This document shows positions 5,148 to 42,618 of a stretch of 64,000 nt of DNA, piece by piece. A program made the translations under genes and the position numbers. Origin of the DNA: a virus (Duplodnaviria; Caudoviricetes); the IMG/VR virus record IMGVR_UViG_3300037047_000246; one strand, given 5' to 3'. Numbering within the stretch: position 1 is the stretch's first letter; every line of letters begins with the position of its first letter. Under the pieces are notes generated by a model. That model searched no databases. It saw nothing but the letters and a program-made list of their open reading frames with translations, and was not told the DNA's origin.

Positions 5148-5755
5148 GTCGCGCACCCATTCAAAGCCCCGACTGCTATCTGGTGTCGCCAGTCCATCGT
5201 GGCTGGGACACTGAGCGCGCAGCGCGAACACACAACGCAGTTGCCATTGTCTGCCCACTCGTGTCGGGTCTGCTTCTTGTTCAAAACCTTGGCTGGGCTC
5301 GCCACCCGCCAGCAGCTCTTGCCGACTGTGTGGTGTGCGGCGTACTGTGCGACGACTTCAGATGTCACCCTCCACATTTTCCCTATCTTCTTGCCTGGCA
5401 GGCGCCCTTCCCGCAACATCTTGACCATGGTCTGCGCGCATAGCCCGAGACGCTTTGCAGCCTCGGCTGCGCTCAGTCCGGCCTCAGTCTGCCGCGGCGC
5501 TACACGCAGCCCTGCGAAATTGCCTTCTGGCTGCAATCCAGCCATGGCCGCAAGCATTGCCTTAGCAGCCCAAGCCGTGCGGGCTGCTGCCGGCATGAGT
5601 CGCTTCACAGTGGGCAGAACCTCTTGTTCCCAGCCTGGCTTGGCCGCGACTGCGCGGCGCTGCATGCCCAGCAGGTTTCCGTGAAGCAGGTTTGCGTCTT
5701 TGACCGCTGCAGCCACCTGCTTGCGCAGCTTTGCGGCTCCGCGGCTCGTCTTCAT
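5144..5755 (-). CDS. excisionase/MerR-like helix-turn-helix (HTH_17) protein
   Basis: LSAAEAAKRLGLCAQTMVKMLREGRLPGKKIGKMWRVT. Confidence 0.75.
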   Translation of the reverse strand: MKTSRGAAKLRKQVAAAVKDANLLHGNLLGMQRRAVAAKPGWEQEVLPTVKRLMPAAARTAWAAKAMLAAMAGLQPEGNFAGLRVAPRQTEAGLSAAEAAKRLGLCAQTMVKMLREGRLPGKKIGKMWRVTSEVVAQYAAHHTVGKSCWRVASPAKVLNKKQTRHEWADNGNCVVCSRCALSVPATMDWRHQIAVGALNGCAT

Positions 5756-6159
5756 GAGTCCTGCACCTGCCTGGTCACCAGATCCTGCAAAAACTGCTGG
5801 AGCAGTTTTTTGGATGGGTTCTTCATGTACTTGATTGAACTCCCACCCTGCTGGATTGCTTCAAGCTGCACTTGTTCGGACGGCTGCTTGATGAACCGCA
5901 CAGCGGTCCAGTTTTGCTTGACTGCTGCAAGCTGTACTTGTTCGGACGGCTTATTGATGAACTGGATTGAGAAGCCGTTCTGTCGGACTGCCGCGAGCTG
6001 GACCTTTTCGGACGGGTTCTCGATGAACTGAGTCGCCTCACTGTTCTGCCGGACTGCTGTAAGCTGAAATATCTCTGAACACAGACCGAGCGCGCAGCGC
6101 AGACCTGACTCGAATGCTTCTTCAGGAGTCAGCCCGTGCTCTTGCAGCAGCTCTTTCAT
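5752..6159 (-). CDS. DUF4116-like 22-aa repeat protein with C-terminal tag (VQDS)
   Basis: 3-4 copies of PSEqVQLaAVrQNgxsIqFI; matching 66-bp DNA periodicity (ttcggacgg...gatgaac). Confidence 0.75.
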   Translation of the reverse strand: MKELLQEHGLTPEEAFESGLRCALGLCSEIFQLTAVRQNSEATQFIENPSEKVQLAAVRQNGFSIQFINKPSEQVQLAAVKQNWTAVRFIKQPSEQVQLEAIQQGGSSIKYMKNPSKKLLQQFLQDLVTRQVQDS

Positions 6160-6278
6160 GAGTCATGAACCTTCCGCAGGATGCACCGGGATTCGGGACA
6201 CTCCGGATCGTGGCAGAATTCGATCACTCCGCCCGCTCCGATCGAATACGAATGGCCGACAGGCACGTTCTCAGTCAT
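6156..6278 (-). CDS. 40-aa Cys/His peptide with C-terminal tag (VHDS)
   Basis: MTENVPVGHSYSIGAGGVIEFCHDPECPESRCILRKVHDS; ATGA overlap with the next gene; below the ORF-track length cutoff. Confidence 0.55.
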   Translation of the reverse strand: MTENVPVGHSYSIGAGGVIEFCHDPECPESRCILRKVHDS

Positions 6279-6365
6279 GATGATGTGCAGCGTCAAAGCA
6301 GACCCCGCGGAGCACGGATTGTGATGCGTATCGGGTGGGCAATCTTGATCATGTGACCGGGGGTT

Positions 6366-6602
6366 TCAAGACTGCATGATTCGGCGCACGAGCTGCCGAT
6401 TGCAATCAGAGTACACTTGGTCTCGCTTCAAATCTGCTGGCTGCGGCTTCCACCCGACGCAATCGCGCGGGTCTGTGTCGTCCGGCGCCGCCACTCGGCA
6501 CTCGGCGCCGCACTGGGTGCATCGCCAAATGAGCACGCACTTGCGCCGCTTTTTGCGCCACCCGATGCGATGGCGCGCCATCTGCCAGTCGTGGTTGAGC
6601 AT
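6366..6602 (-). CDS. Zn-ribbon protein with C-terminal tag (IMQS)
   Basis: WRCTQCG...DCNRQLVRRIMQS; start uncertain. Confidence 0.65.
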   Translation of the reverse strand: MLNHDWQMARHRIGWRKKRRKCVLIWRCTQCGAECRVAAPDDTDPRDCVGWKPQPADLKRDQVYSDCNRQLVRRIMQS

Positions 6603-6638
6603 GATTGGCGCTACTTCGTGCTGGCGGCGATTTCCGGC

Positions 6639-6902
6639 TCATATTGAGTGGATGTACATCACGAGAGCTTCCTCGTACGTAATTGGTACGATTGAATCTA
6701 AACTGTGCATTGCTCGCCACTGCGTAGCGCAGTCCTTGCACAGCGCATTAGGGCGCATAACCAGACTACCAAACCTCCCATCAATCGGTAGAAGTGTGCG
6801 CCACCATTCGACGGCAGGCTTACCGCATCGTTCTCCTTCCAGTTCAGGCCCCTCTACCAGAAGAATGACGCAACATCTGTCTGTGGGTAATCTTGCAATC
6901 AT
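6639..6902 (-). CDS. small Zn-binding family protein with tag (IHSI)
   Basis: RCGKPA...LCKDC...PITYEEALVMYIHSI. Confidence 0.65.
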   Translation of the reverse strand: MIARLPTDRCCVILLVEGPELEGERCGKPAVEWWRTLLPIDGRFGSLVMRPNALCKDCATQWRAMHSLDSIVPITYEEALVMYIHSI

Positions 6903-6946
6903 TCAGTGATGCTCGTGTGGTCGCTAGTCGGTCTTGCGCTTGGACT

Positions 6947-7177
6947 TCATATGTCTTTTCCCATGCCCCATCCGGACTTGAACTCTTCGAACTCCTGCTC
7001 AGTGCCGCCGCCGGAGACTTCGAAAGCTTCGCGGATTTCGGCGTCCTCAGGGTCGTCTGAAAGAACAGAATCGCGGCGAATGCGGCAGAATGCGCAAGAG
7101 CAAAGCTCAGACCGAACTTCCATCAGTATCTTGCCAAGCTCGTTGCGGCCTTCGCCACCGACCTGCCCCCAAAGGTG
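6947..7177 (-). pseudogene. NADAR family protein, detached C-terminal part
   Basis: HLWGQVGGEGRNELGKILMEVRSEL is the canonical NADAR C-terminal WG..G.N.LG..LM..R motif; joins in frame to 7970-8311 if 7178-8311 is flipped. Confidence 0.85.
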
Positions 7178-7232
7178 GTGAGTCGTGAGGCAGCTTGTAA
7201 AACTCTGACTTGAAATTGGTACTGTTGGCAGA

Positions 7233-7541
7233 ATGAACAGAGATTGCACCAAAGGAATTGCTGGCTGTAAGTGCGCAGCTGGCTTCAAGCCAGAAGAGCA
7301 GTGCCCGGAGTGCCGGGAGGACGGAAGAAGGTATTCATACTGCATGTGTCCGCCAGATTTCGAACACGAGCGTCCTGTTAACACGGCCTCGGCCTCTGTC
7401 GAGGACAAATTGGCCGCTGCCAAAAGTTCGCTGCTTGAATTGTCTGAATACTCTGGTCCGCTGGCCGTTGAGCTTAGGGCCCGCAAAGTCATGCTGATAA
7501 AATCCCTCGAAATACTGATGAAACATCCTGAGAGCAAGTGA
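7233..7541 (+). CDS. Cys-rich hypothetical protein
   Basis: CTKGIAGCKC, CPEC, YCMCPPD; lies inside the inversion. Confidence 0.6.
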   Translation: MNRDCTKGIAGCKCAAGFKPEEQCPECREDGRRYSYCMCPPDFEHERPVNTASASVEDKLAAAKSSLLELSEYSGPLAVELRARKVMLIKSLEILMKHPESK

Positions 7542-7583
7542 GCGTGCCCCAAACTGAGCGCATGCCGGAAAGTAGAGTCCGGC

Positions 7584-7808
7584 ATGCGCTCATTTGTCGC
7601 CATTTTTATGCTCTTGGCAGGGTGCGGATCGCAAGACTCCCGACCTGCTTACACTTGCATGAAGGCACTCGACGCGTCTCGATGCGGCAGACACACCGCG
7701 TGGGAATGCACTCACGGCGTGGTGCCGGACGGCTGCACAGAAGCTGACTTGGGGCATCTTGAAGGATACGATTGGGTGGTGTGCTGCCCGCCAGGGCAGA
7801 CGCCGTGA
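7584..7808 (+). CDS. small Cys-rich lipoprotein
   Basis: MRSFVAIFMLLAG-C lipobox. Confidence 0.65.
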   Translation: MRSFVAIFMLLAGCGSQDSRPAYTCMKALDASRCGRHTAWECTHGVVPDGCTEADLGHLEGYDWVVCCPPGQTP

Positions 7809-7969
7809 CAAATCGCGTCTCAGCTGCTTTCTCTGATTGTAAACTTGCTGACACCTGAACGGTCTAACATGGGCGCGACTCTGCCTGCGGCGGAAATCTG
7901 TGCAGGTCCCGAGTACGAGGCACAAGCGAAGTTTTAACCCGGTGCCGGTTGCGGCCGGTCAGGTGACTC

Positions 7970-8311
7970 ATGACCACGATCGATTCTTTCAGCGGAGAGT
8001 TTGAATTTCTGTCGAATTTTTACCCGTGCCAGGTCATGTTTGACGGCGTGGTGTGGAAAAGCGTGGAGCATGCGTACCAAGCAGCCAAGACAGACAGCTG
8101 CAAAGAGCGCACCGCAATCTACGGAGCGACGTCGCCAGCCAGAGCCAAACGGCTTGGCGCAAAAGTGCGCCTGCGCAAGGGGTGGGATCAGCTCAGGTTA
8201 GGCGTGATGAAAGAACTTGTCCGAGACAAGTTTGTGCGCAGTGCCGAGCTGCGGCAAAAACTTATCTACACCCAGCACGCGCAGCTTGTGGAAGGTAACA
8301 CATGGGGCGAC
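7970..8311 (+). pseudogene. NADAR family protein, N-terminal part
   Basis: FLSNFY, SVEHAYQAAK, AKRLG, VMKELVRDKF, LVEGNTWGD; homology stops at 8311 and the track ORF continues into unrelated sequence. Confidence 0.88.
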
Positions 8312-8501
8312 AGGTTACTAGCACGGCGGGGCGGACTTCGTACTGGCTCTCCTGCAGTCCGTTCACGTCGCACAACTCTGCGATGAACTCGTTGGCGGCT
8401 TGCTCGGTATTGAACATCGTAGTTTCCTCACCAGTCCCGCATGTGCATGCCGAGTGCTCGTCGTCGCCCTTGAACCACACAATGAATCCAGGAATCTCCA
8501 T
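8312..8501 (-). pseudogene. hypothetical protein whose 3' end was displaced by the inversion
   Basis: ...YEVRPAVLVT; after re-inversion it reads TGT GAG TCG TGA = CES*. Confidence 0.65.
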
Positions 8502-8531
8502 GTCACCCCTCCCCTCGGACCTGGAAGCACA

Positions 8532-8723
8532 TCATATGGTCATCACATGCTTGACACATTGCTCGTCGCAAAACAAGACTCCATTGAGCTGCCATAGACG
8601 GCTGTCCGTGTTCGGGTCAGAGCAATTGGTGATCACTGCAGCTGCACAATTCCGGCACTGCCACAGTCGCCAGTTTCCATACTTGGTGTCACCACTCATT
8701 CTGACGATCCAGTTGTGCAACAT
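8532..8723 (-). CDS. Zn-ribbon protein with tag (VMTI)
   Basis: WQCRNC...FCDEQCVKHVMTI. Confidence 0.6.
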   Translation of the reverse strand: MLHNWIVRMSGDTKYGNWRLWQCRNCAAAVITNCSDPNTDSRLWQLNGVLFCDEQCVKHVMTI

Positions 8724-9036
8724 TTATTTGCACATCTCAGCTTGCTCCGGGGCCGTGCGATCCGATATGCAGCATAACACAGATGTGATCAGCATTCGGT
8801 TTTGTTCTGTTTCCAGCGGCGCAAGAAGCGTCTGTCAGGGCGGCTTCCCTCGTGCACTCCGCCGTGCCCAGCGAGCCGCCGGCAGACGTAGCCTAGATGC
8901 TCCGCCCCGCATTGGTCGTCGCCCGCATAAGGCGGCTTGCCCAGCCGGACGCGGTCCTTGACCTCTTTGGCCGATCGCTTGGCCGAAGCCCGGCAGCGGG
9001 TCGCGTGCTTGATCTGATTTGTCTTCTTGCGCGTTT

Positions 9037-9372
9037 TCATCCGTCCATTACCTGGCTGACAATGACGTAGTTATTCATCTCTCGCGCAAGCATACAATGC
9101 TCAAAGGCAGCCGCATGGCTGCCATGCAACTTGGGGTCCATACCGACCATTTGCACAAATTTCCGCCGCGTGTTTTCGTCCATACCCTTGCAGGTATTGA
9201 CGAACGACAGCAGGCCGGCCATCTGGAACTCGAACCATGTTGGGTCCTCTAGCGCAGGCGAGCCGTCATGATCGAATTTGGTTGGGCCGTGCTTGGCGCT
9301 CCACTTAAAGCTGTGGCCGCACGCGGCGCAGACCCATTTGCACCCTTCGCACTTCCAGTTGTGCGACGACAT
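9037..9372 (-). CDS. Zn-ribbon protein with tag (VMDG)
   Basis: HNWKCEGCKWVCAACG; ends VIVSQVMDG. Confidence 0.65.
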   Translation of the reverse strand: MSSHNWKCEGCKWVCAACGHSFKWSAKHGPTKFDHDGSPALEDPTWFEFQMAGLLSFVNTCKGMDENTRRKFVQMVGMDPKLHGSHAAAFEHCMLAREMNNYVIVSQVMDG

Positions 9373-10473
9373 TCAACGCACCTCGTGCATCTCGGGCATC
9401 GGGCGTGCCATATATTCGATGCAGCGCAGCAACTTCAGGTCGGAAACCCCTACCAGAGAGCCATGTCCGCGCAAGTTAATAGCAAATCCAGGAGCCATTT
9501 GCGGCGTGAGTTCGAGCACAGCGTCGGCTTCTCTCACGTCGCCACAGGCCAGCACATCGCGCGTCATAGGAGCCCCTAAGACGTAGGTGTGCGAGTGCAG
9601 CATAAATCGCACGAACGGCAGGCGATTGAAAAGTCGGATACTGATTGGCGAATCGACCGACGGCTTGGCATCGCCCCAGTACCCTGTGCGCTGCTCGTCC
9701 AGCAAGCTCACCGGAACGAATCCGCCCGCGCCGATGTCGCGCTTGTCTATGTTGCGCCGAGACATGTAGGCAATGCCACCCAGGCGGAAGGCGGGGAACC
9801 CGCTCTCGCATCGGAAGGACGCATTGCCCATCAGGCGCTCCGGATTAACCGCAGCATGTATCAATTCGTGAAACGTCTTGGCATGACTGCGGACGATATT
9901 GAAGAACTCTTCCACCTCGTCCGGCACGCCTACCTGATGACAGGCGGCGCGCCACAAGTCGGACTGCTCGCTGCCCAAGCACGTTGAGCTGACGCGCGTA
10001 CCGTGCTGCAGCTCTGTCATCCTGGCAGCGAGCGCCCCGGCGACGCGCTCGACATCTAGCTCGTTCGACAGGAACACATTGCCAAGCGGATCCATCAGCG
10101 TGGTGGACACCTTGCTTTCGGCCTTGCGCAGCTCTAGCATCAGGCCACTGTGGGATTTGAGCGCGCGGGCGATCAAATCGCCAAAAGAGTAGCGCCCTTC
10201 GTCGTTGCGCTTGGTTGTGATCAGCAGCGTGTGCGGCGCGAGCCGCTTGATGTCGTTGATCAGCTTGGGCCGGCTGTTGTCGACGTCCGGCATCCACAGC
10301 ACAGTGTCGTGGTCCGGCAGGGCCTTACATATGCGCTCCAGCGTCGCCCAGTCGCCGCCATTGTGCACGGTAGCGATATGTGCGAGGTGTTGCGCGAGCA
10401 GGTTGACGTATCCGGATGGCTTGCCTGTTTCGAAGTTGCCGCCGATGATCAGCATGAGATGATTTACACTCAA
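9373..10473 (-). CDS. class II aldolase/adducin-like protein with extra N-terminal domain
   Basis: GNASFRC, KPSVDSPI, MLHSHTY (HxH metal site), NLRGHGSLV. Confidence 0.7.
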   Translation of the reverse strand: MSVNHLMLIIGGNFETGKPSGYVNLLAQHLAHIATVHNGGDWATLERICKALPDHDTVLWMPDVDNSRPKLINDIKRLAPHTLLITTKRNDEGRYSFGDLIARALKSHSGLMLELRKAESKVSTTLMDPLGNVFLSNELDVERVAGALAARMTELQHGTRVSSTCLGSEQSDLWRAACHQVGVPDEVEEFFNIVRSHAKTFHELIHAAVNPERLMGNASFRCESGFPAFRLGGIAYMSRRNIDKRDIGAGGFVPVSLLDEQRTGYWGDAKPSVDSPISIRLFNRLPFVRFMLHSHTYVLGAPMTRDVLACGDVREADAVLELTPQMAPGFAINLRGHGSLVGVSDLKLLRCIEYMARPMPEMHEVR

Positions 10474-22647: not shown

Positions 22648-23220
22648 ATGAGCACCCTGGAGCCTGCGAATGCTGCGTCGCTAGCGAAATTTGTCAGAAT
22701 AGCAGCGCGCATCGCCGGAGTGCGTGTAGCAACTGCTCCCCGCGGAGAGTCATTTGACCTGACCAGGCATGTGACGCAGTTCCAGGTTTCCCATTCTAAG
22801 CTTCCGGACGATCTCAAAACCGAGTTCGTCAACACCCTGGCCAAAAAAGAGCGCGTGCAGGAGCTGTTCGTGAAGTATGCTCGGTCGCTGCGGGACTCCG
22901 ATCTCAAACAGTTGGAGTACGCACAAAAAGGCTTGGTGCACTCGCTTCAGTCACTGATGCGCATAGCCGAAAACAACATGATCCGGTGGGTGCTGCGGTT
23001 CGACGCCGCACTGACTCGCATAGAGCGATTCGATCCTGCTCTGGTTTATGAATCCGACCTGTGGCACGTGGACATTTGGGTGCAGCATGTGCACGAGCTC
23101 GTCACAGCGCTGTTTCTGGCATGTGGCGGCAGAACCGGAGACGAAGTGCCGACTGAGCTGTGGCAGCCGGAGTGGGGCGACCAAGGCCCTGCCGAAGTGA
23201 CAGAGGCAGATTTCAGCTGA
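22648..23220 (+). CDS. hypothetical protein with RIAARIA motif
   Basis: LAKFVRIAARIAGVRVA. Confidence 0.7.
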   Translation: MSTLEPANAASLAKFVRIAARIAGVRVATAPRGESFDLTRHVTQFQVSHSKLPDDLKTEFVNTLAKKERVQELFVKYARSLRDSDLKQLEYAQKGLVHSLQSLMRIAENNMIRWVLRFDAALTRIERFDPALVYESDLWHVDIWVQHVHELVTALFLACGGRTGDEVPTELWQPEWGDQGPAEVTEADFS

Positions 23221-24271
23221 CGTCGTGCACGCCGTTTTCCCTGATGCCTGCAGCAGTGACTCTAACGAATCGAGCTCGCCGCTGCAGCTCTTTGATGTTG
23301 GCAGCCCCAACATACCCCATGCCGGACCGCAGGCCTCCAACCAGCTGATGCAGAACCGCTGACAACGGGCCTACGTACGGCACTTTGGCCTCCACGCCTT
23401 CAGGCACAAGCTTGTCTGCCGACACGCCAGATTGCCCATAACGATCTTTGGACCCTCGCTCCATGGCGCCGACAGATCCCATGCCTCGGTACACCTTCCA
23501 GCGCCGGTCCATAAGCTCGCCAGGCGCCTCGTCAGTGCCAGCCAGAAGAGAGCCGATCATGACTGCATCGGCGCCGGCGGCAAGAGCTTTGACGATGTCT
23601 CCAGAATTCCTGATTCCGCCGTCTGCCACGATGGAGACGTCGTGTTTGTCAGCTTCCTCGGCGCAGTCTGCCACAGCGGTGAACTGAGGCATGCCGCAGC
23701 CAGACACTAGACGGGTGGTGCAAATCGTGCCTGGCCCCTGGCCAATTTTGACGATGTCTGCGCCAGACTCCACCAAGGCTCTCACAGCAACGGCGGTCGA
23801 CACATTTCCAGCCATGATCTTCATCTTCGGGTACTTTGCCTTGATGTCGCTCACTGCTCGAAGAACGTTGACGGAGTGACCGTGCGCCGAATCTACAACT
23901 GCAAGGTTGACGAACCGTTCGCATTCGCCCAGGCGCTGTTCCCAGTCCCGAACCCCAACCGCCACAGCGGCTGTGGGGAAATGCGTTGAACCTTTGGCCG
24001 CATGCGCCCCAAGCGCCTTCCTTGCTTTCCTGATTTCGGCCGCTTGCTCGGCGGGGCTCAGGTTCTTGTGCACCACGCCGCACCCGCCCGCTCTGGCCAT
24101 GGCCGCCGCCATGGCTGCCTCGGTCACAGTGTCCATTGCGGCGCTTAGAATGGGAATTGCAAGTTTGAGTCCGGACAAGCTGGTGCCGCAGTCAACATCT
24201 GCTGGCACAACGCTGCTCAGCTGCGGGATCAAGAGCACATCGTCAAAGGTGAGGCATTCGCGAAGTTCCAT
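23213..24271 (-). CDS. guaB: IMP dehydrogenase lacking CBS domains
   Basis: [30 protein letters not shown] (catalytic Cys loop), ADGGI, YRGMGS, PEGVE; TAAGGT 5 nt before the ATG; GMP reductase not excluded. Confidence 0.92.
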
Positions 24272-24431
24272 GGCACACCTTACCGTTGGCGTTTCTGGCG
24301 CGCCACCTCGCGCAAACAAATCTTACATAGAATTCTAGGCTTGCCGTCTATGTCGTTTGGAGGTACCAAACCATGGACACGGCAAAGTTTACTAACCCCA
24401 GCGTCTGTCGAGAGCTGGTCTCATAGGAAAA

Positions 24432-40777: not shown

Positions 40778-42079
40778 TCACGCGACAATTTCCGGCAATG
40801 CTCTCTGCAAAATTGAATCTGCGTGGCGCAAGACGTAGTTCAAGTCGAAGCAGCGCGCCGCCCCCTCGGGGCCTATGGCGGCGAGCACTTCCGGGTGGGA
40901 AGTTATTCTGTCTCGAAACGGCGCTGGAGACATCGCGCACGACTGCACTATTTTGTAAGCCTGAGATTTGATCATGCCAGACCTCACGAGCGCCAACATC
41001 ACCGACTCGCTGAAGATCAAACCGCACGTCGCCCGCAGATTCAAGTCCATCCGGCCCTCGTCCACTACCAAGTTCTGCACCAGCAGAAGCGCCCTGTCCA
41101 GCATGTGCGCCAAGGCAGCAGTGACGTCCGGAGCTATCATGCGCTCGACCGACGAGTGCGAAATGTCGCGCTCATGCCACAACACGGCGTTTTCCATCGC
41201 CGGCGCAACGGCGGACCGGACGTATCTTGCCAGTCCGCACAGTTGCTCAGAAACTATGGGGTTGCGTTTGTGAGGCATCGCCGAGGAGCCCGTCTGGCCA
41301 CGGGAGAAGCTCTCTCGCACTTCGGCCACCTCGGTGCGGGCCAGATGCCTGAATGCCAGAGCAAGCCTCTCGAGGCCTGTCGCGACCATGCCGCACACCC
41401 AAAACAAGGCGGCGTGCCGGTCGCGGGCCACTACCTGGGTCGGCACCGGCTCCGGCCGCAGCCCAAAGTCGAGCAAGATTTCGCGCTCGATCTCTGGATC
41501 GAGATGCGCGTAGGTACCCACGGCCCCTGAGATAGTACCTGTTTGGATTCCGAGCTGGGCCTGCAGCAGATGGTGCTGCGCCCGCTGCAGCTCCTGGAAG
41601 TGCCCAGCCAGCACCAGCCCGAACGTAGTGGGCTCGGCATGCTGCCCGTGCGTGCGGCCCACCATGGCAGTGCCGGCATGCTCTCGGGCTCGCACGGCCA
41701 GGGCGCACATCACAGCTTCCAACCTCAGATACAGCAGCGCGCACGCCCGATCCAGCAGCACAGCGAGCGCCGTGTCGACCACGTCGCTAGAGGTCAGTCC
41801 GTGGTGCAGCCACCTGGCGGCAGGCCCCAAACTCTCTTCCAGGTGGCGCAGGAACGCCACCACGTCGTGCCGGGTCTCGGCTTCCAGCTCCGCGACGCGG
41901 GCCGGGTCGGGGCGAAAATTCTGCGCAGCCGCCGTCAGAACGTCTGTCGTGCCAGCAGGCACGATGCCATGGTTTTCCATGGCCGCAGCGGCAGACATCT
42001 CGATCCTGAACCAAGTGTCGAGCCTAGTCTGGTCGGACCACAGATCGGCGAATTCTTTAGGTGTATACCTGGGAATCAC
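40778..42079 (-). CDS. purB: adenylosuccinate lyase
   Basis: IPRYT, ETRHDVVAF, HHGLTSSDVVDTA, GRTHGQHAEPTTFG, GSSAMPHKRNP signature, HERDISHSSVER; GTG start coupled to the stop at 42076. Confidence 0.95.
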   Translation of the reverse strand: MIPRYTPKEFADLWSDQTRLDTWFRIEMSAAAAMENHGIVPAGTTDVLTAAAQNFRPDPARVAELEAETRHDVVAFLRHLEESLGPAARWLHHGLTSSDVVDTALAVLLDRACALLYLRLEAVMCALAVRAREHAGTAMVGRTHGQHAEPTTFGLVLAGHFQELQRAQHHLLQAQLGIQTGTISGAVGTYAHLDPEIEREILLDFGLRPEPVPTQVVARDRHAALFWVCGMVATGLERLALAFRHLARTEVAEVRESFSRGQTGSSAMPHKRNPIVSEQLCGLARYVRSAVAPAMENAVLWHERDISHSSVERMIAPDVTAALAHMLDRALLLVQNLVVDEGRMDLNLRATCGLIFSESVMLALVRSGMIKSQAYKIVQSCAMSPAPFRDRITSHPEVLAAIGPEGAARCFDLNYVLRHADSILQRALPEIVA

Positions 42080-42618
42080 AGCGTCACCTTCACCCAAATG
42101 ACGGTCCGGTCTTCGTCTTCTTCCATGATGCCGTCCACCAGGACTTCCGCCGAATCCATGACCCGCACTTGCGGCGGAGGCATGCCTAACGGCACTCGCT
42201 TGCACCTGAACGCGTCGAGCAGAGTCCATACGATCCAGTCCTTAAACTCGTCCCGGGTCCGGGTGAAGAAGCCCTCCAAAGGAAGAATTCGCCCCGTCCA
42301 GCGAGCGGCCTCTGCTGCCAGCTCCGCGTCGGTCATCGACCTGGAGGTTTCAGAGGCCGGTTCAAACTGTACGGGAACTCCAGCGGTTTGCCCTCAGGAA
42401 TTTTGCCTGAGCTCCACAAATTTTTGGCTTTTCTGTCCAGGTCCACGTCCAGCCTTTTGCATGCTTCGTCCACCTTGGACTTTTGCGCAGCCGTTAATGG
42501 CTTACCCTGGTCTAGCTTGTCTCGCATGCTAGCAAAAGCTTTCTTCTCCCATTCATCAAGGGCTTCATATTCGAGGATGGTGCTTAGAGTTGCAAGATCG
42601 TCTTTGATGCTCATGCAG

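Follow-up and report, generated by a model that had tools for sequence, protein, structure and literature searches.

The locus described here raises a simple question: why do the two parts of one NADAR gene lie on opposite strands of a phage genome, at the edges of a segment whose own genes run against their neighbours? The window, by which we mean the whole analysed stretch of 64,000 nucleotides, comes from a huge uncultured phage of groundwater and coal-seam samples, with a genome of about 362 kb (contigs that carry the broken NADAR gene reach 362,732 bp), and contains tail-fibre, sigma-factor and nucleotide-metabolism genes. Its gene content includes a dCMP deaminase, an IMPDH/GMP-reductase family protein and an adenylosuccinate lyase (listed regions 1692-2192, 23213-24319 and 40778-42229), and also a Dam-type methyltransferase, a NUDIX protein, a 5'-nucleotidase, a sigma factor and a papain-like protease. 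A first-pass annotation had attributed the arrangement to an inversion of 1134 bp and had offered three explanations for it, namely an on/off switch, a lesion or an artefact. Using the sequence itself, domain models, the gene order of relatives and independently assembled sequencing runs, we argue that the inversion is likely to be a real, one-off event that is fixed or nearly fixed in the population.

Results

Ends and extent of the inverted segment

Reading the bases at both ends and flipping the segment in silico delimit the inversion to 7178-8311 (1134 bp), and alignment, HMM comparison, contigs of four sequencing runs and a JGI contig all support this delimitation. On the plus strand, the N-terminal half of the NADAR gene runs up to 8311 and ends with GAA GGT AAC ACA TGG GGC GAC, and on the minus strand, reading downward from 7177, the C-terminal half starts with CAC CTT TGG GGG CAG. 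The dinucleotide GT at 7178-7179 is the reverse complement of AC at 8310-8311, and the overlap is exactly 2 bp, with non-complementary bases both immediately outside (G at 7177, A at 8312) and immediately inside (G at 7180, G at 8309). Inverting 7178-8311 or 7180-8309 yields the same product, which leaves the breakpoints ambiguous by 2 bp. Alternative coordinates of 7173-8316 were rejected, as they would add five non-complementary bases at either end and put the join out of frame.

The inversion and its shared GT/AC dinucleotide, as first described, are thus confirmed at the level of the bases. The 2-bp core, noted in the first-pass annotation as typical of serine recombinases, carries less weight: an overlap of at least 2 bp has a chance probability of 0.16 for random pairs of breaks, and the “core” is therefore uninformative on the enzyme and offers no evidence for a serine recombinase. 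When the segment is flipped in silico, its three genes come to lie on the minus strand, co-directional with their flanks in a minus-strand gene block that spans from about 11.2 kb to 0.3 kb, in agreement with the first-pass annotation.

The split NADAR gene and its rejoined form

The N-terminal half of NADAR (codons 1-114) occupies 7970-8311 on the plus strand, where the present open reading frame continues to 8386 and encodes 138 amino acids, the last 24 of which are a nonsense tail; the same product has an entry in the protein collection that we searched. Pfam family PF08719 matches this half over model positions 9-122 of 163 (E = 3e-16; 60.5 bits against a cut-off of 35.1). The C-terminal half (codons 115-190) lacks a start codon; it lies at 6947-7177 on the minus strand and matches positions 145-162 of the same 163-position model, its last 18 positions. 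It carries the conserved motif WG..G.N.LG..LM..R, followed by an acidic tail of 50 amino acids. No second NADAR was found in the 64-kb window.

Flipping 7178-8311 produces a single NADAR reading frame of 190 amino acids on the minus strand, continuous through EGNTWGD, as the first-pass annotation had predicted. In an alignment of this rejoined protein with 15 intact viral NADARs, the join is crossed with no gap, and the same 15 genes from viral contigs were used to build an HMM of 142 positions. Against this HMM, the rejoined protein scores as one domain of 195 bits over positions 2-138, compared with 154 and 27 bits for the separate halves, and the N-fragment (positions 2-113) and the C-fragment (positions 114-138) abut with no position missing between them. 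The gapless join and the abutting positions show that no codon was gained or lost, a result that chance cannot yield. In its rejoined form the protein has the full domain with the conserved motifs VEHAYQAAK and VEGN-WGD-WG. The IMG/VR NADARs, which are distant (at most 54% identical), served for alignment and not for synteny.

The break falls in the most conserved motif of the gene, VEGNTWGD | HLWG, between the conserved Asp and the next WG. In solved NADAR structures, residues of this motif contact the ribose and the pyrophosphate of ADP-ribose (PMC11543638), and when mapped by alignment these contacting residues would lie in the very motif that is broken here. Because the break lies in this conserved motif and the C-fragment has no start codon, the split NADAR is, on sequence grounds, very probably inactive.

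Two observations were made on the DNA around the C-terminal half. The acidic extension of roughly 50 amino acids (6947-7099, minus strand) begins with C-S-C-A-F-C; the NADARs of the nearest relatives (142-146 amino acids) do not have it, and the small open reading frames downstream of them are unrelated to this tail. There is also an open reading frame of 218 amino acids (6947-7603, minus strand) that starts with an ATG at 7603, passes antisense through the 102-amino-acid gene described below and enters the NADAR C-half in frame. Such a frame has probably arisen by chance, the DNA being GC-rich, and the JGI gene caller annotates only its last 100 amino acids.

The small orphan gene at the other junction

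At the second junction, the body of a small gene (63 codons and one base) lies at 8312-8501 on the minus strand, as defined by the list of open reading frames, the flip and the protein collection. At present this gene runs on antisense to NADAR, ends at 8262 and encodes 79 amino acids. After the flip it becomes, as foreseen in the first-pass annotation, a frame of 66 amino acids ending in VLVTCES*, and GAG TCG TGA at 7180-7188 on the plus strand would represent its original last two codons and stop, now stranded. No homologue was found in a protein collection of about 5.8 billion clusters except the present 79-amino-acid form, no paralogue in the window was significant (best E = 0.19), and none of the fetched relatives carries the gene. 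As the gene is an orphan, its 66-amino-acid “repair” has no homologue against which it could be checked, and there is nothing unusual in a stop that lies a few codons from a junction. Of the two exact repairs claimed for the flip, only that of NADAR, where the join is gapless, is shown.

The likeness of VLVTCES to an ending shared by neighbouring genes was likewise borne out in part: three of the five defined positions of V-x-x-V-[MQH]-[ED]-S fit and the other two do not. Tag-like endings of the form V-[MQH]-[DE]-S are found on many minus-strand genes (5752-6296, with other ends between 260 and 11223). Two consecutive tagged genes share the identical DNA GACTCATGA, and the ATG of the next gene overlaps the stop; the “tag” signal therefore coincides in part with start/stop overlaps and possible ribosome-binding positions.

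Other features of the segment

Two intact small genes lie within the inverted segment. The first, at 7233-7541 on the plus strand, encodes a Cys-rich orphan of 102 amino acids and now runs antisense to the gene block around it, as judged from the list of open reading frames and the flip. The second, at 7584-7808 on the plus strand, encodes a lipoprotein-like protein of 74 amino acids with the lipobox LLAGC; it is about 61% conserved in relatives, which have it co-directional with its flanks. Between these two genes there is a hairpin at 7552-7595 (18 bp, 94% complementary), followed by a T-rich run, and its 3' arm includes the ATG (7584) of the 74-amino-acid gene. A consensus scan of 6500-9100 found no sigma-70-like promoters, and the same region has no excess of terminator-like sites over shuffled sequences.

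Relatives and the ancestral orientation

A comparison of synteny in relatives had been proposed as a check, and it favours the flipped arrangement. The closest relatives that were fetched are the Logan contigs L083-L087 (NADAR 65% identical) and L082 (70%). In L083 and L084, homologues follow one another on one strand in the order 366-amino-acid gene, 111-amino-acid gene, 74-amino-acid lipoprotein-like gene, NADAR and 87-amino-acid gene. This order and orientation are those of the flipped arrangement, not those of the window. NADAR is intact in both contigs (142 amino acids, with contiguous N and C parts), and also in L082. Since relatives combine an intact NADAR with the flipped gene order, we conclude that the flipped arrangement is ancestral.

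In L083 (L083:549-4745), genes for RtcB, a metallophosphatase and a vWA protein lie between the homologue of the 111-amino-acid gene and NADAR; they are absent from this place in the window. The 74-amino-acid lipoprotein gene of the same contig (L083:2542-2763) is present and was missed by the gene finder. Other searches for relatives were negative: the exact 27-mer at the end of the N-half had no match in the JGI metagenome contig collection, the alignment of the 74-amino-acid gene retrieved no relatives from metagenome contigs or viral contigs, and the neighbouring 366-amino-acid gene had no match in viral contigs.

One orientation in the sampled population

We compared the window, over 5500-10000, with the contigs of four public runs from four samples of 2020 (two labelled groundwater metagenome and two coal metagenome), each assembled independently of the window. 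Three further runs, X5-X7, contain only about 10% of the sampled words, and the comparison draws on the other four. In three of these four runs, a single contig each (62, 51 and 87 kb, at depths of 38, 62 and 23) spans the region with 0 differences. The fourth run, at a depth of about 6, has one contig (7132-7581) that bridges 7177/7178 and another (7942-10000) that bridges 8311/8312. Both junctions recur in a 4.5-kb JGI contig with 100% identity. The orientation in the contigs of the four runs is only that of the window, and these contigs, from which rare variants are dropped in assembly, contain neither an ancestral junction nor loose ends at the junctions. The four runs do not differ in sequence, and all of them probably stem from one campaign; they accordingly represent one population rather than independent lineages.

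The protein record agrees with the contigs. In a collection of about 5.8 billion proteins, the intact NADAR of 190 amino acids is absent: only the broken form of 138 amino acids is more than 71% identical to the N-half, and only the 79-amino-acid form resembles the small gene. An intact form would appear at near 100% identity and the next match after the broken form is at 71%, which means that only the broken NADAR is on record. Taken together, the inverted form dominates the sampled population and is probably the only one in it.

A one-off event could also have left a standing polymorphism, in which genomes with the ancestral arrangement persist at low frequency. The event looks recent, as neither NADAR half has decayed, and rare variants are not displayed in contigs, both of which would suit such a polymorphism; we nevertheless consider it unlikely, given that the four runs have no ancestral-junction contig and no loose ends and that no intact protein form is on record.

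Comparison with a programmed switch

The on/off switch of the first-pass annotation would mean that a recombinase whose gene lies elsewhere, in the phage or its host, flips the segment reversibly and turns NADAR on and off. In the surroundings of the segment ends (+/-40 bp), the best local score of an inverted alignment was 7, against 8.1 +/- 1.5 in shuffled sequences; 441 of 500 shuffles scored at least as high as the observed alignment, and the in-register identity was 22/80. A separate repeat search found no arm at 7178 or at 8311. Among the 101 open reading frames of at least 140 amino acids in the 64-kb window, none matched the resolvase, recombinase, integrase or transposase families of Pfam (E <= 1e-4). 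Both statements of the first-pass annotation on this point, that there are no flanking inverted repeats and no recombinase in the window, therefore hold. In the present orientation, the locus supplies only an N-fragment with a nonsense tail of 24 amino acids and a C-fragment with no start, and no intact NADAR.

Serine recombinases cut with a stagger of 2 bp. The shared dinucleotide would match such a cut, the exchange at the NADAR break looks conservative, and our recombinase search covered 64 kb of a genome of about 362 kb. Against this, the ends have no repeats and the window no recombinase, the long contigs of the four runs show one orientation and are unbroken at the junctions, the protein collection holds no intact form, and 16% of random break pairs would share 2 bp by chance. 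In addition, the known invertons, intragenic ones included, have as their defining feature inverted repeats recognised by a recombinase (PMC10028968). We therefore regard a programmed switch as very improbable. The same holds for its repeat-less variant, in which a serine recombinase of the phage or the host would make a conservative exchange with a 2-bp stagger at the locus of an anti-DarT-type NADAR and could flip the segment back at low frequency.

Finally, an assembly or amplification chimera, with no inversion in the phage DNA, is hardly credible: multiple-displacement amplification does typically generate inversions at microhomology and a single population was sampled, but both junctions occur with 0 differences in independent contigs of four runs from four samples (depths of up to 62) and in the JGI contig, random chimeras would not dominate several libraries, and no repeat of k-mer length could have misled the assembler, so that the artefact option is excluded for practical purposes by the independent per-run assemblies.

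Discussion

In this study, we have examined a phage NADAR gene that is split by the inversion of 1134 bp, and our results favour the lesion among the three options of the first-pass annotation, as the inversion is real and the flipped arrangement is the ancestral one in relatives. Based on these results, we propose that a single illegitimate recombination inverted the segment in an ancestor of the population, between sites that shared only 2 bp. One break fell inside the NADAR motif, and the other would have cut the small orphan gene two codons short of its stop. NADAR was thereby turned into an N-fragment of 114 codons, which kept its own upstream region and had its direction reversed, and a C-fragment of 76 codons with no start. 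The small gene would have had its last two residues replaced by 15 nonsense residues, and the two intact small genes became antisense to the long minus-strand block. Neither NADAR half has acquired further stops or frameshifts, which indicates that the event is recent. What the data show are the inversion itself, its precise ends, its occurrence in several libraries and the ancestral gene arrangement of relatives; the loss of NADAR function, the recency of the event and its molecular route we infer.

Several routes could have led to such an exchange. One would be end joining or template switching at the microhomology, another would be a topoisomerase (through subunit exchange), and a third would be a recombinase acting once on pseudo-sites. 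At the break in NADAR no base is missing, which suits a conservative exchange no less than error-prone end joining. The junctions share 2 bp of homology and there are no long repeats, as is the case in illegitimate inversions.

The phage NADAR AdfN strips the ADP-ribose that DarT1 attaches to phage DNA (PMC11825919), and if the NADAR studied here acts likewise, this phage lineage may have lost a counter-defence. For annotators, the consequences are more direct: the 138-amino-acid “NADAR” and the 79-amino-acid protein on record are products of breakage, the lineage has no intact NADAR at the locus or elsewhere in the window, and the local strand switch is secondary. More generally, the locus provides a clean natural case of a repeat-less phage rearrangement that can be mapped to the base and has not decayed, and whose ancestral state survives in relatives.

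Among known systems, a first comparison is with the phage NADARs. The rejoined protein shares the full domain with them, AdfN among them, and the motifs VEHAYQAAK and VEGN-WGD-WG, in which lie the residues that are described as acting on ADP-ribose (PMC11543638); it differs from other viral NADARs, to which it is about 50-71% identical, by its additional acidic tail of 50 amino acids and by the fact that its gene is broken.

The G segment of Mu with Gin, the C segment of P1 with Cin and the Hin system of Salmonella have inverted sites of about 26-34 bp and an adjacent invertase gene. In any population, such serine-invertase segments are present in both orientations, each of which gives a functional product. 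The segment described here resembles them as a phage inversion of about 1 kb, with a crossover compatible with a 2-bp core and with the body of a gene outside the segment that reads into it. Unlike in those systems, the sites, the adjacent invertase, the second orientation and the functional product of each orientation were not found, and the one orientation present has no intact NADAR. A further comparison is with invertons and intragenic invertons, which have been found through inverted repeats that a recombinase recognises and through reads in both orientations (Chanin et al., PMC10028968). The locus has in common with the intragenic invertons a breakpoint within a coding sequence and a truncated product, whereas their two defining features, inverted repeats and both-orientation reads, have no counterpart at this locus, as judged from contigs.

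A last comparison is with illegitimate recombination at micro-homology or with no homology, which has been put forward as one source of phage mosaicism (PMC2327257). The common features are a homology of zero to a few bp, the absence of dedicated sites and the restriction of the event to one lineage. Most documented cases are deletions, insertions or exchanges of modules between genomes, whereas the present one is an intramolecular inversion that left the NADAR break, where this can be checked, with every base in place. The inversion reveals no new mechanism; it is an ordinary kind of mutation in an unusually clean form.
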